Below, in pieces: positions 4,087 through 54,192 of a stretch of 64,000 nt of DNA. Position 1 is the stretch's first letter. Every line of letters begins with the position of its first letter. The position numbers and the translations under genes are program-made. The notes beneath the pieces were generated by a model. That model was given only the letters and a program-made list of their open reading frames with translations, ran no database searches and was not told the DNA's origin. Origin of the DNA: an uncultured archaeon (GTDB lineage: Archaea; Asgardarchaeota; Lokiarchaeia; Sigyniarchaeales; SOKP01); assembly GCA_964486045.1 (NCBI GenBank), contig CAZALK010000005.1, positions 190,713-254,712 on the forward strand, written 5' to 3'.

Positions 4087-5493
4087 TTGAGTGATTTAGA
4101 AGGATTGACTAGAAAGTTAATGGAAAAAGGTTTTAAAAAGGAAGAAATCATTGTAAGGCTTGTTAATGAATATATGGATTTTAAAGACATTGACCAAGAG
4201 TCCGCAACTCTTCTTGCTGCAGCAATTTATGAAGAATGTAAAAAGAGCGATATAATAACTGTTTCAGATCCCTTTATAAGAAATTTGTTAGATATTAATA
4301 TGGCAAATGTAACTATTGGAAAACAAGGAGTGGGTTGTAGAGGATCAGGCGACTTTTTTGTTCATAAACTCGTTGCAGAGTTATCTGAAACAGAAATAAG
4401 GGCATATTTATCACCTAACTCCTTAGATGATGCTGGAGCTGTGAAGATTAGTGATATTGACGGATTTAAAACAGAAGATGATCTAATCATTGTATCTAAA
4501 ATGGAAGGAATTCATAGCCGCTTAAGTGACTTTCCATTCTTGTGTGGTTTTCACGTAAATTCATGTAATGCGTTTGTGTGAAGCGTATCGAGAGCTGCAC
4601 TACGAGATCTCTATGTTAAAGGCGCTAAGCCTATTTCAATAATGGTTGATGTACATCTAGGAGATGATGCAGACGTAGGTAAACTTTTTGATTTTATGGC
4701 AGGTATATCTTCTGTTTCAGAATTAGCAAATGTTCCAATAACAGCAGGTTCAACTTTGAGAATAGGTGGTGATATGGTTATAGGTAATCGATTGGTAGGG
4801 GGTGTAAGTGCTGTAGGTATCTGTACCAACTTATTGGCTAGGAGAAATATTAAAATTGGTGATAAGATACTAATGACTGAGGGAGCTGGTGGAGGTACAA
4901 TAACTACAACAGCGATCTATTCTGGGAATCACAATGTTGTCAAAGAAACAATGAATGTTAAGTTTCTTGAAGCTTGTGAAGTGTTATTAAATTCGGATTA
5001 CCTAAAAGACATTAGTGCTATGTGTGATGTTACAAATGGAGGACTTCGAGGAGATCTCTATGAAATTAACTATGAAGCTAACTGTGGTATGACAATATAT
5101 GAAAATGAGGTAAAAAAACTTGTAAATCTAAACGTTTTAAATCTTTTAGAGAAAGTGCAAGTTGATTATTTAGGTGTTTCTCTTGATGCTCTCCTAATTT
5201 ATTGTTCTGAATCTGCTTCAAAAAAAATTATTTCAGATTTAAAAAGAATAAGTATAAGATGTGCCGAGATTGGTTTCGTGAATGACTCAAAGGAAATATC
5301 CATGATATATTCCGATAAATCGAAAGAAAAAGTCCTTCCACGATTTCGAGAATCGGCATATACAAAAGTTAAACAAGTAATTGGTGAAGAAACTCCAGAA
5401 TTGATTAAAGTAATGGAAAAGAAAATTGAAGTCGCAGCCAACGCTGCTTTAGAAAAGCGTAACAATATTATAAGAATTATCAAAAATCTTTGA
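4087..5493 (+). CDS. AIR synthase/HypE/SelD-superfamily protein, 458 aa after removal of intron 4559-4588
   Basis: ORFs 4087-4581 and 4642-5493 are in the same frame, separated by a 30-nt insert containing TGA. The spliced junction reads FHVTRAALRDLYVKG. Also has the CDVTNGGLRGD motif. Confidence 0.88.
4559..4588 (+). other. BHB mRNA intron, 30 nt
   Basis: Outer helix tgtggttttc/gagagctgca, central helix acgt/gcgt, bulges aaa and atc, inner helix ttcatgtaa/ttgtgtgaa. Cuts aa|a and at|c give cac gta acg aga (HVTR). Confidence 0.9.
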
Positions 5494-42122: not shown

Positions 42123-42796
42123 TTAAATTTCTACTATTTCTTTTATATCTTCTTCTGTGAACTTTAAGGTGTTTTCAGCATTTACCTTTTTGATCTTATC
42201 CATTTCATCATAGTATTTAATTATTGGTTCAGCGTTTGCTTCATAAGCATCTAACCTGTTTTTGAGCGTTTCTTCATTATCATCACTTCTTTGTTGAAAC
42301 TTTATTTCTGAATCGCATTTATCACATAAACCTTCTACCTTAGGCGGGAGAGTATATTTGTTGTATAGTTTTCCACAGTTAGGACAGGAGTATCTACCTA
42401 AAATTCTTTTCATAATTAACTCTCTTGGGACTTCTAGGAGAAGTAATAAATCGATTTCGGTTATACTTGTTAATGCTTTTGCTTGGGAGATTGTACGAGG
42501 GAAACCATCAAGAATGAAACCTTCTGCCTTCACATCTTCCCTAGTTAGCCGATCTCGTACTATATCGATGGTTACATCATCAGGAACAAGTTCTCCCTTG
42601 TCCATATAGCTTTTTGCTTTTAATCCTAAAGGTGTTTCATTTTTTAGGTTTTCTCTAAATATATCTCCTGTACTGATATGGATAATATCTGGTAATACTT
42701 TTTTGATTTGCCCGGAAAATGTACCTTTTCTGGATTTTGGGACGCTCCCTAAAATTTTCCAGCCCCGGGGGGTCCAAATAATATTAATTTTTTCAT
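42123..42796 (-). CDS. adk: Adenylate kinase (bacterial type, Zn-LID), 214 aa after removal of intron 42728-42756
   Basis: Spliced N-terminus MKKLILFGPPGAGKGTFSGQI; HISTGDIFR, GELVPD, LDGFPRT, CPNC..CDKC and QRSDD motifs. Confidence 0.93.
42728..42756 (-). other. BHB/BHL mRNA intron, 29 nt, inside the adk P-loop
   Basis: Sense strand ctgg AAA atttt-a-ggga-gcg-tccc-aaaat ccag AAA. Cutting aa|a in both bulges gives gct gga aaa ggt (AGKG). Confidence 0.9.
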
Positions 42797-46249: not shown

Positions 46250-47428
46250 ATGCTAAAGAAAGTTTTAATTGCTTCGGAATCGGCATTTCGTAGAACTCTT
46301 CTTTCTGAAATGATTGCATCTCACAAGGAAATAGTGATAGTTGGTAATGTAAGGAACGATAGTGAAGCAATCGATGTAATAAAAAAAAAAAATCCACATG
46401 TTTTAATTTTAGATATTGAATTTGATAATAAGGATTGGTATACACAGTTCTATCCCATTGTGAAATTTTATCTCATTAGTACTATTGTTTTGACTGACGT
46501 CAATCCTAAAAACATTGATGTATTTGAAGTTCCGATTCTATTAAAATCCTATGATTATATTTTGAAGCCCAATGGGATTTGGAAGGATGAATTACCTAAA
46601 ATTAAGGAAAACATATTTTCAAAAATTTTAATGGTGGATATTCCTAAAATTCATAAAATTGATAATAAGACAAGAATAATGAATAAAAATGTTTTTATTC
46701 GCCAAAGTCAGAAATTAAGGATACAAGAATCAACTAGATCGAGTCAGATTGAAGACACAAGAATAAAAACAGAAATTAATCCAGAACTTAAACCAACTAT
46801 TGAACCACGGTTAGAAGAATATTTCTTAGAATTCGCTCCAGTTACCTTTACTAAATTAGAAACCAAAATAGTGGTAATTGGTGCTAGTGTGGGGGGTCCT
46901 AGAACACTAAGATTAATATTAAGTGAAATTCCTAGATACTTTTCAGCCCCCATTTTAGTTGTACAACATTTAAATCATTTTTTTATGAGACAATTTGTTG
47001 TTTCTTTAAAAGCTGTTTGCAAAGCGAATGTAAAAATGGGCAATAATTATGAAGAAATTCATCCGGGAACCATTTACTTTTCCCCTGGGGATAAGCATAT
47101 GCAAGTCACAGTAAAGAATAATAAACCTTGTATTAGGACATTTGAAGGTGAACCCATAAATTTCTGTAGACCTTCTGTTGATGTTTTATTCTATTCAACT
47201 GCTAGAATTTTTAAGAATAAAGCACTTGGAGTTTTGCTAACTGGAATGGGAAAAGATGGGGTTGCGGGACTTCATGCAATTAAATATGAAAGAGGTAGAA
47301 CTATAGCTGAATCCGAAGAGACAAGTATTCTATATGGTATGCCAAAAGCAGCAGCAGAAACTGGTGCTGCAGATTTAGTTATCCCAAATTATAAAATTAT
47401 TGATGAAATAATAAAATTTGTGAATTAA
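46250..47428 (+). CDS. cheB: CheB-like methylesterase with degenerate receiver domain
   Basis: GASVGGP, VVQH, RPSVDVLF, LTGMGKDG and YGMP motifs; the receiver acidic pocket reads ASES. Confidence 0.85.
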   Translation: MLKKVLIASESAFRRTLLSEMIASHKEIVIVGNVRNDSEAIDVIKKKNPHVLILDIEFDNKDWYTQFYPIVKFYLISTIVLTDVNPKNIDVFEVPILLKSYDYILKPNGIWKDELPKIKENIFSKILMVDIPKIHKIDNKTRIMNKNVFIRQSQKLRIQESTRSSQIEDTRIKTEINPELKPTIEPRLEEYFLEFAPVTFTKLETKIVVIGASVGGPRTLRLILSEIPRYFSAPILVVQHLNHFFMRQFVVSLKAVCKANVKMGNNYEEIHPGTIYFSPGDKHMQVTVKNNKPCIRTFEGEPINFCRPSVDVLFYSTARIFKNKALGVLLTGMGKDGVAGLHAIKYERGRTIAESEETSILYGMPKAAAETGAADLVIPNYKIIDEIIKFVN

Positions 47429-47459
47429 ATTTTTTATAAGTGACTACTTTTAATAAATC

Positions 47460-47645
47460 ATGGAACCATCAGTAAGTGAGGAATCTAAAAAAGAAATTCT
47501 GAAATTAATCTCAACCCCGGGTATTGAAATTGAAGATATTGTAAAAAAGGTTGGATTAGATTATAAACTAGTAATGAATTTCTTATCTGACGAATTCCTA
47601 AAATATAATTTTGATTATGGCAGAAGAATCTGTTGTAGGTTTTAA
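47460..47645 (+). CDS. Small hypothetical HTH-like protein
   Basis: 61 aa with an HTH-like PGIEIEDIVKKVGLDY segment. Confidence 0.5.
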   Translation: MEPSVSEESKKEILKLISTPGIEIEDIVKKVGLDYKLVMNFLSDEFLKYNFDYGRRICCRF

Positions 47646-47709
47646 AGCAAGTTCATTATAATAAAACTTATTAATTCTCAATTATTTTATAGTTCACTAA
47701 GTTCATAAC

Positions 47710-47809
47710 ATTTTAAAGGACTTAGGACGCAAATTAAAGCGGTTTCGATATACTCTATATATTGAAGTGAGTTGTTATAATCTTGATTTAGCGTTCTTAG
47801 TCTTAAATG
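47710..47809 (+). promoter_or_regulatory. Long hairpin upstream of the uL11-uL1-uL10-P1 operon
   Basis: Nested pairings aggact/agtctt, aggacgc/gcgttct, aaattaa/ttgattt and ttcgatata/tatattgaa. Confidence 0.55.
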
Positions 47810-47849
47810 ATTTTGAATTTAAAATTACTAGAAAAAGTAGTGAGATTAT

Positions 47850-48375
47850 GTGAGTGAAAAAGGAAAAGTTGTTGTAATGGCTCTTGTAACTGGTGGTAGT
47901 GCATCAGGAGGGCCACCCATTGGACCCGCAGTTGGACCTACAGGCATAAACGTAAATCACCTCGATTATTGATGTATACATTAAAGATGTTGTTGACGAA
48001 ATAAATAGTCAAACAATGGTCTTTAAGGGTTTAACTGTACCGGTAAGAATAGAATGTGATCCCGAAACAAAACAATTTAAGATATTTGTTGAAACTCCTT
48101 CCACAGCATCATTATTACTTAAGGAGACTGGAGTAGAAAAGGGGAGCTCATCATGTTCAGAAGAAAAAATTGGTGATCTAACGATTGAGCAGGTTGTTGG
48201 TGTCGTTGAAGCAAAGAAAGGAAAGTTTTTAGATAAAACGTTTAAATCTGCTGTTAAAACAGCTCTAGGGACTGCATTATCTATAGGAATTACAGTTGAA
48301 GGTGAAGACCCCAGAGAAATTCAAAAAAAATTAGAAAATGGAGAATTTGATGACAAAATCAAAGGTGTATTGTAA
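47850..48375 (+). CDS. rpl11: 50S ribosomal protein uL11, 165 aa after removal of intron 47950-47977
   Basis: GTG start; MSEKGKVVVMALVTGGSASGGPPIGPAVGPTGIN|IKDVVDEINSQTMVFKG. The ORF track shows only the 3' exon. Confidence 0.93.
47950..47977 (+). other. BHB/BHL mRNA intron, 28 nt
   Basis: Central helix gcat/atgt, bulges aaa and ata, inner pairs cg/tg and aatc/gatt. Cuts aa|a and at|a give ggc ata aac att aaa (GINIK). Confidence 0.85.
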
Positions 48376-48377
48376 AG

Positions 48378-49109
48378 TTGAAGGTAGATGATAAATTATT
48401 AAAAAAATCCTTAGGTACCGCAATAGATTTTTCATTGATTAAGAAAGAAGGTTTTGAAGATAAAGTTAGAAAGTTCGATGAAACGATTGATCTTATTATT
48501 AACATAAAGGATGTGAATCTAAATGATCCTAAAAACCGAATTGATAAAGAAATTATCCTCTCACATCAAGTGGTTGCTGGTGAAAAACCAAGTGTATGTG
48601 TGATCGCTTCAGATGAGATATTGAATGAAGCTAAGAAGGCAGATATAGACACTCTTGATGCTGAAGGGCTAATTAAATTAAATACTGAAGAAAAAAAGTA
48701 TAAAAAGAAATTTGCTAAGAAGTATGAATTTTTCATAGTTGAGGCGAAGATGATGCGAGATGTTGCACGTTACTTAGCAAGATTTCTAGGCCCCTTAGGA
48801 AAAATGCCTAAACCCTTCCCTACTGGCTATGGAATTATATCTACTGCCGATGATTTAAAAGTTGCTTTCGAAAGATATAAAAAAGTAGTTCGAATTCAAA
48901 TGAAGAAACAACCAATCATTTTTACTAAAATAGGGAAAAAATCAATGGATAGTGAAAAATTATTTGAAAATATCAAAACTATAGTTGACTTTATTGCTGA
49001 TCAAATGCCTCATAAGTTCAATAACTTTAAATCAATGTATTTAAAAAGTTCAATGGGGAGGCCATGTAAGGTAGATGAAGCTTTTCTAAAAACTTTAGAG
49101 GTGAATTAG
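48378..49109 (+). CDS. rpl1: 50S ribosomal protein uL1
   Basis: RKFDETIDL, LGPLGKMP and KSSMG motifs; operon position. Confidence 0.93.
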   Translation: MKVDDKLLKKSLGTAIDFSLIKKEGFEDKVRKFDETIDLIINIKDVNLNDPKNRIDKEIILSHQVVAGEKPSVCVIASDEILNEAKKADIDTLDAEGLIKLNTEEKKYKKKFAKKYEFFIVEAKMMRDVARYLARFLGPLGKMPKPFPTGYGIISTADDLKVAFERYKKVVRIQMKKQPIIFTKIGKKSMDSEKLFENIKTIVDFIADQMPHKFNNFKSMYLKSSMGRPCKVDEAFLKTLEVN

Positions 49110-54093: not shown

Positions 54094-54192
54094 CGCAGAC
54101 AGAGGGATTCGAACCCCCGAGTGCATTCGCACACTGGCTTTCTGGGAGTATTCCCGCTCCAAGCCAGCGCCGTACCGCTAGGCAATGTCTGC
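54094..54192 (-). tRNA. tRNA-Ser(GGA) with canonical 37/38 intron (54140-54156, 17 nt)
   Basis: GCAGACA/TGTCTGC acceptor stem, CTGGC-TTGGAGA-GCCAG after splicing, long variable arm, TTCGAAT, G73. BHB is ttgg AGC ggg..ctc ccag AAA. Confidence 0.92.

Follow-up and report, generated by a model that had tools for sequence, protein, structure and literature searches.

A predicted BHB intron in the ribosomal protein uL11 gene of an Asgard archaeon, and the turnover of similar inserts at four sites among its relatives

Protein-coding genes of archaea are treated in the searchable literature as essentially intron-free, and the exceptions that are cited are cbf5 and one 5′ untranslated region. The cbf5 pre-mRNA of Crenarchaeota contains a BHB intron, the removal of which has been attributed to the hetero-oligomeric splicing endonuclease (PMC2738675; Watanabe 2002; Yoshinari 2006), and reviews up to 2025 cite cbf5 as the archaeal mRNA intron together with a Haloferax intron in a 5′ UTR. 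For the HVO_1309 mRNA of Haloferax volcanii, cleavage at a BHB intron in the 5′ UTR was shown both in vivo and in vitro (PMC7714728). Among Asgard archaea, some tRNA genes are heavily interrupted by introns, with repeated gains at positions where a BHB can form (bioRxiv 10.64898/2026.10.13.758758). A full-text search of the literature outside subscription journals turned up no description of a BHB intron in any protein-coding gene of the Asgard archaea, and a 2026 review of the group does not mention introns.

Short inserts in coding sequences are also dealt with in other ways. The HAC1 and XBP1 mRNAs undergo unconventional cytoplasmic splicing, in which IRE1 works together with the RtcB or the Trl1 ligase, and the XBP1 intron is 26 nt long. 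In T4 gene 60 and at the mitochondrial 'byps' elements, the ribosome skips the insert, for which matched take-off and landing codons are needed. The uL11 gene analyzed here has something in common with each of these systems. With cbf5 it shares a short, here predicted, BHB intron that lies inside the reading frame of a translation-apparatus gene and that relatives have gained and lost; with HVO_1309, an mRNA as the (for uL11, predicted) substrate of the tRNA-splicing endonuclease; and with the Asgard tRNA introns, the phylum and presumably the enzyme. As in XBP1, a small frame-shifting mRNA intron would be removed with no spliceosome involved and a tRNA ligase would join the exons, and as in T4 gene 60 and byps, a short stop-containing insert lies in an otherwise intact gene. 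From the genomic data described below, we conclude that positions 47950-47977 very probably constitute an archaeal BHB intron within the uL11 coding sequence, and one of a population of such introns in the protein genes of this family.

The stretch of DNA that was analyzed (hereafter the window) is 64 kb long and AT-rich (G+C of 31%), and it comes from a metagenome-assembled genome with an estimated contamination of 7.8%. It includes a stalk operon of the archaeal type, with the gene order uL11-uL1-uL10/P0-P1. The first gene, uL11, occupies 47850-48375 on the plus strand, beginning with a GTG start codon at 47850 that is preceded by a Shine-Dalgarno-like GTGAG motif and ending with a TAA stop. 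The other three genes lie on the same strand: uL1 (48378-49109; PF00687), which is 2 nt past the uL11 stop, uL10/P0 (49114-50007; PF00466 and PF17777), and the gene for the stalk protein P1, the archaeal L12 (50072-50362; PF00428). Directly 5′ of the operon (46250-47645 of the window) are a gene for a CheB-type methylesterase and a 61-aa ORF, the latter with only a sub-threshold winged-helix match.

Within uL11, the codons GGC ATA AAC are followed by 28 extra nucleotides, GTAAATCACCTCGATTATTGATGTATAC (47952-47979 by protein alignment), after which the gene resumes with ATT AAA GAT. When the message is read unspliced, the frame runs from MSEKGK...GPTGIN into ...GPTGINVNHLDY and ends at an in-frame TGA (47970-47972), and the rest of uL11 (IKDVVDEINSQ...) lies in a different frame from exon 1. 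Exon 1 (47850-47949, plus strand) encodes MSEKGKVVVMALVTGGSASGGPPIGPAVGPTGI and the first base of an Asn codon, and matches positions 3-26 of the Pfam domain Ribosomal_L11_N. Exon 2 (47978-48375, plus strand) completes the Asn codon with its first two bases, continues with IKDVVDEINSQ... up to the TAA, and matches positions 27-58 of L11_N as well as the Ribosomal_L11 RNA-binding domain. Deletion of the 28 nt yields a 165-aa uL11 with no internal stop, in which the exons join exactly at L11_N positions 26|27; thus, no residue is lost or gained at the junction. The initial sequence-only reading of this locus had proposed that a TGA-containing insert of 28 nt interrupts the GPTGIN-IKDVV segment between two intact exons, and that its removal restores a normal uL11 of 165 aa. 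Frame reading and the Pfam matches confirmed both statements. With 'AC' occurring at each end of the insert, three different cuts lead to the same mRNA; among these three, all of which yield GIN|IKD, a fully paired central helix is found only with removal of 47950-47977.

This predicted intron (ACGUAAAUCACCUCGAUUAUUGAUGUAU; 28 nt, plus strand), which holds the in-frame TGA, can be drawn with its flanking exon bases as a BHB motif. The 5′ strand of the central helix is the exonic GCAU (47944-47947), which pairs at 4/4 positions, one G-U pair included, with the intronic 3′ strand AUGU (47972-47975). The 5′ bulge is AAA (47948-47950), with cleavage predicted after 47949, and the 3′ bulge is AUA (47976-47978), with cleavage predicted after 47977; each bulge is 3 nt long, the two lie on opposite strands, and each is 3′ of its own strand of the central helix. 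The inner hairpin, h′ (47951-47971), consists of 2 bp, a 2x2 mismatch, 4 bp and a 5-nt loop. A cut after the second base of each bulge takes out 28 nt and leaves GIN|IKD as it is in intronless orthologues, with a predicted spliced junction of ...GGCATAA|ACATTAAAG... (codons GGC AUA AAC AUU AAA).

The window's copy is nevertheless the least convincing BHB of the uL11 set. Its inner helix is degenerate, with 6 of 8 positions paired compared with 7-8 bp in most orthologues, and its outer helix has only 1-2 bp, which places the motif in the relaxed HBh′ type. In addition, when the 76-nt segment is folded in isolation, the structure of minimum energy (−6.5 kcal/mol) is one other than the BHB (−2.5 kcal/mol for the constrained BHB fold). 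RNAalifold also reported a small conserved hairpin at the opening of exon 2, directly after the 3′ bulge (47978-47990; ACAUU AAA GAUGU), and this hairpin might act as a stand-in for the absent outer helix.

Comparative data came from 64 uL11 loci of the same family, 24 of them drawn automatically from the genus and 40 chosen by hand; because the hand-chosen loci were selected mostly for short open frames, that set is enriched for interrupted genes. Each locus was aligned to an intronless gene to locate its inserts, three of which were mis-registered by the aligner. The 64 loci contained 64 inserts of 27-38 nt, all falling at one of four sites, none of them further than ~105 nt into the coding sequence: site 1, after GGS (20 inserts of 28-38 nt); site 2, after PPI (14 inserts of 30-36 nt); site 2b, within GPAV and in one genus only (5 inserts of 27-30 nt); and site 3, after GIN, which is the site occupied in the window (25 inserts of 28-31 nt). 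Interrupted genes made up 13 of the 24 loci in the unbiased genus draw. Six further uL11 loci were collected from other families of the order, and outside the family the open frames were at least 162 aa long among the matches listed. Three genes each contain three introns, at sites 1, 2 and 3, within ~60 nt of coding sequence (L010 in genome G005, L045 in G209 and L059 in G274), and the exons between these introns are ~21 and ~28 nt long.

The BHB structure recurs throughout this collection. For about 54 inserts out of 64, the central helix paired at 4/4 positions, in every case with the register from which VTGGSASGGPPIGPAVGPTGINIKD is recovered; most of the others paired at 3/4. The site-3 insert is kept in 25 loci from several genera with its structure conserved; the central helix was paired in all 23 introns scored, and the bulge was AAA in 21 of the 23. 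Across nine aligned species, the site-3 central helix was 100% paired and the inner helix 93% paired, compared with 23-44% for slid partners, and two inner-helix pairs showed compensatory changes on both sides. RNAalifold predicted the same BHB structure unaided at this site, and in the orthologue from G021 the BHB is the unconstrained minimum-energy fold (−14.2 kcal/mol). At site 1, covariation extends across the exon-intron boundary: exonic UGGG occurs with intronic CCCA or CCCG (n = 13) and AGGG with CCCU or CUCU (n = 7), with no non-pairing combination. The covarying exon base is synonymous, and forms U-A or U-G in the one group versus A-U in the other with its intron partner. Site-2 introns differ in that they have an outer helix of 5-6 bp.

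The lengths and contents of the inserts bear on whether they are translated. Insert lengths modulo 3 were distributed 33/15/13, and multiples of three were not favored. The in-frame, 36-nt site-1 inserts that were read through contain in-frame stops, which argues that the inserts are removed and not translated. None of the four sites has additional residues in the uninterrupted orthologues.

Occupancy of these sites changes between close relatives, and near-identical uL11 genes differ in the sites that are occupied. On a gene tree built from exon 2 (387 columns, with limited resolution and a biased sample), the minimum number of state changes was at least 18 for site 3, 15 for site 1 and 12 for site 2. 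The closest sampled species (G013; 91% amino-acid identity) has no insert at exactly this uL11 position. A survey of intron presence and absence in related genomes had been proposed along with the intron reading; it revealed a scattered distribution in which the closest species is without the intron. The uL11 segment that contains the four sites is the most GC-rich part of the gene (53% versus 34% in the rest), suggesting that introns are retained in places that permit a stable 4-bp helix.

An assembly error was considered as the cause of the insert and rejected, with contigs from a second sample and from another study also holding it. Specifically, the insert is unchanged in Logan contigs of the source study, both in X1 (at 270x), a sample that may be the assembly's own source, and in a second sample, X2 (at 75x). 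A contig from a different study, representing a slightly diverged relative (X4, record 13), spans both junctions with no gaps (47889-48221), and two short contigs from a third study (X3) overlap the insert. We also observed, in X4 (a seawater metagenome), a contig that departs from the window after GGS at 47901 and continues as site-1-intron-like sequence; thus, a relative that carries such an intron occurs in an independent data set.

A second intact rpl11 elsewhere would have counted against an intron. Both L11 Pfam domains were used to search the genome (5.18 Mb in 45 contigs, estimated to be 99% complete), and no second L11 gene was found. For uL11 as a whole, dN/dS was 0.068 at a dS of 0.62 in comparison with the uninterrupted gene of the closest sampled species; for the two exons taken separately against this intronless orthologue, it was 0.025 (exon 1) and 0.079 (exon 2). 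These low values in both exons indicate that the two halves are selected as one protein.

Similar introns were found in other genes of the window. All indels of at least 14 nt were examined in a comparison of this genome with 124 kb from the closest relative. Two clean BHB introns were present here and absent in the closest relative (G013), one in uL11 and the other in adk. The adk intron (29 nt, at about 42728-42756 on the minus strand) lies in the P-loop and has a CUGG/CCAG helix, AAA bulges and a 9-bp hairpin; the unspliced reading is ...GPPGAGKF* and the spliced reading is ...GPPGAGKGTFSGQ..., with the P-loop restored. An AIR-synthase-like gene has a BHB intron of 30 nt (4559-4588, plus strand) that is in frame and contains a stop, with an ACGU/GCGU helix and an AAA bulge, and its spliced product reads ...FLCGFHVTRAALRDLYVKGAKP... 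The number of short BHB introns verified in the 64-kb window is three. A tRNA gene on the minus strand (54094-54192) is 99 nt long versus a 71-position model, and ARAGORN assigns it an odd 4-base anticodon; this gene probably holds one or more introns. A genome-wide de novo scan that combined the BHB motif with ORF rescue gave 4685 matches, versus 5011 and 4776 in slid controls, with enrichment at no inner-helix length or intron length. Because noise from gene junctions swamps the signal, the scan is uninformative either way.

Other classes of interrupting element were also considered. No Rfam family matched 47700-48200 at E ≤ 1, and a group I or group II intron was rejected, given this result and the 28-nt length of the insert compared with a ribozyme core of hundreds of nucleotides. 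With regard to a homing-endonuclease-associated intron, a search of the genome for the LAGLIDADG family found no such gene near rpl11; the sole match (G000 C14:39756-39992, L086) is on another contig, within a 1429-aa open frame that is probably an intein. An intein in uL11 itself was rejected for an insert that is 28 nt long and contains a stop, and a split gene making two polypeptides was rejected for an exon 2 that does not open with a start codon.

The (alpha-beta)2 form of EndA with an L1 loop has been described in Asgard archaea and linked to relaxed substrates (PMC5829648). This genome encodes two EndA paralogues of ~200 aa each, located at G000 C7:36262-36867 and C10:136871-137473, and a single RtcB. 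Of the two paralogues, one corresponds to the catalytic half of the fused enzyme model and the other to its structural half. [quoted passage not shown] The RNA structure, the comparative data and the enzymes present in the genome support reading the uL11 insert as an intron, and we infer that the transcript is cleaved and ligated in vivo. In the pre-mRNA, exonic GCAU would pair with intronic AUGU to form a 4-bp helix with bulges AAA and AUA, closed by the intron hairpin. The tRNA-splicing endonuclease, made of the two EndA paralogues, would cut after the second base of each bulge, and RtcB would ligate the exons to give ...GGC AUA AAC AUU AAA... and with it the normal 165-aa uL11. An unspliced uL11 message would specify only a 40-residue peptide.

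One alternative to splicing is that the ribosome bypasses the insert by hopping, or by programmed frameshifting, and that the RNA stays uncut. For example, peptidyl-tRNA-Tyr could leave the message at UAU (47967-47969) and land at UAC (47977-47979) to give the product GINVNHLDY-IKD; the arrangement here of UAU-UGA and, 7 nt on, UAC-AUU in the exon-2 frame is a layout like that of T4 gene 60. However, the inserts of orthologues that we read by eye do not keep this layout (in G021, for instance, the exon-1 frame meets different codons); what the orthologues do keep is the BHB helix, with covariation. Furthermore, the 36-nt in-frame inserts at site 1 hold stops and present no frame that needs repair, and the extra residues are absent from uninterrupted orthologues at all four sites. 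We therefore regard bypassing as very improbable. Another explanation is that uL11 is broken, either as a pseudogene or by a recent lesion, and that the organism lives without full-length uL11 or makes its C-terminal part from an internal start. Such damage would fit the intron hairpin of the window, which is weaker than those of orthologues, and a metagenome-assembled genome with 7.8% estimated contamination. It is difficult to reconcile with strong purifying selection on both exons (dN/dS of 0.025 in exon 1), with a site-3 insert of conserved structure in 25 loci from several genera, with the lack of any other L11 gene in the genome searched, or with an insert that is identical in two samples (270x and 75x). 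In addition, exon 2 opens with neither a start codon nor a ribosome-binding site, and its first ATG (48016) lies inside the N-terminal domain. A broken gene is thus a highly unlikely explanation.

Given that the insert is most probably a BHB intron, two questions concern its exact limits and its role. The sequence-only reading had noted that an alternative 5′ site might be used, and this site could be used also or mainly, giving a 22-nt intron (47956-47977) and a 167-aa uL11 with GINVNIK. The register does exist: all four bases of ACGU (47950-47953) pair with the AUGU that the 28-nt register also uses, the two 3-nt bulges read AAA and AUA, and the reading frame is kept in the product. However, its constrained energy is −0.3 kcal/mol versus −2.5 kcal/mol for the 28-nt register, and it has no inner helix. 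It depends, moreover, on a base that is specific to the window, the same base that weakens the window's inner hairpin; the other eight aligned site-3 introns have ACGA or ACGG, which pair with H3 at only ~2/4 positions by eye. Uninterrupted orthologues all lack the two additional residues at this point. We consequently think it improbable that the 22-nt intron is removed as well or instead, and retain the 28-nt intron at 47950-47977.

The earlier suggestion was that stalk-protein synthesis might be linked, through splicing of the lead cistron, to the capacity for tRNA/rRNA processing. This would make the intron a dedicated regulator, gating the stalk operon by the capacity of EndA and RtcB. 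The intron is indeed in the first cistron, uL1 starts 2 nt past the uL11 stop, and the premature stop at 47970 could reduce downstream translation through a loss of coupling. On the other hand, presence and absence are scattered, with at least 18 state changes at site 3 and a closest species that is without the intron, the same kind of intron occurs in the unrelated adk and AIR-synthase-like genes, and the sequence holds nothing specific to a sensor. The suggestion therefore found no support, and we consider a regulatory role unlikely. Because of the scattered presence and the introns in unrelated genes, tolerated or selfish elements fit better than a control device, and the uL11 intron is most likely such an element.

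Our judgment is evenly divided on a broader proposal, namely that uL11 is one case of genome-scale mRNA splicing by protein enzymes in one Loki-type Asgard family, occurring preferentially in GC-rich 5′ motifs rich in Gly and Pro (the uL11 N-terminus, P-loops), with rapid gain and loss at recurrent sites. Under this proposal, GC-rich motifs would allow a stable 4-bp helix despite an AT-rich transcriptome. If the rate of three introns per 64 kb were uniform, extrapolation would give a few hundred per 5.2-Mb genome. Splicing on this scale, if true, would imply an active and so far undescribed route of intron insertion and precise deletion, and would constitute a prokaryotic parallel to the 5′-biased introns in ribosomal protein genes of intron-poor eukaryotes.

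Splicing of uL11 would have several consequences. It would compete with translation in a cell that has no nucleus. Gene callers would split or truncate genes of this kind, so that annotation errors would be systematic in Asgard proteomes and marker-gene sets. The pairs of loci with and without an intron across the family should be useful for studying how BHB introns are born and lost. The role in mRNA that is already known for the EndA/RtcB pair would be widened; the eukaryotic counterparts of these enzymes splice tRNAs, and RtcB also acts on XBP1.

In their details, the described systems depart from the uL11 locus in different respects. HAC1 and XBP1 are cut by the IRE1 nuclease at twin stem-loops and not at a BHB, and their splicing is regulated by stress; no such sensor is evident at uL11. 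Unlike the inserts of T4 gene 60 and byps, the uL11 insert has a conserved and co-varying BHB structure. The HVO_1309 intron is located in an untranslated leader, where it interrupts no reading frame, in contrast to that of uL11. The study of Asgard introns was confined to tRNA genes, and the families that it describes as intron-rich are members of other classes (Jordiarchaeia and Atabeyarchaeia; bioRxiv 10.64898/2026.10.13.758758). In the case of cbf5, the intron is in one gene, at one site, in Crenarchaeota, and its splicing was shown experimentally, whereas here splicing is predicted for a ribosomal protein gene of Asgard archaea. In uL11, four sites fall within ~60 nt, a single gene can have as many as three introns, and occupancy changes between close species; it is this multi-site, fast-turnover pattern that exceeds the cbf5 precedent.
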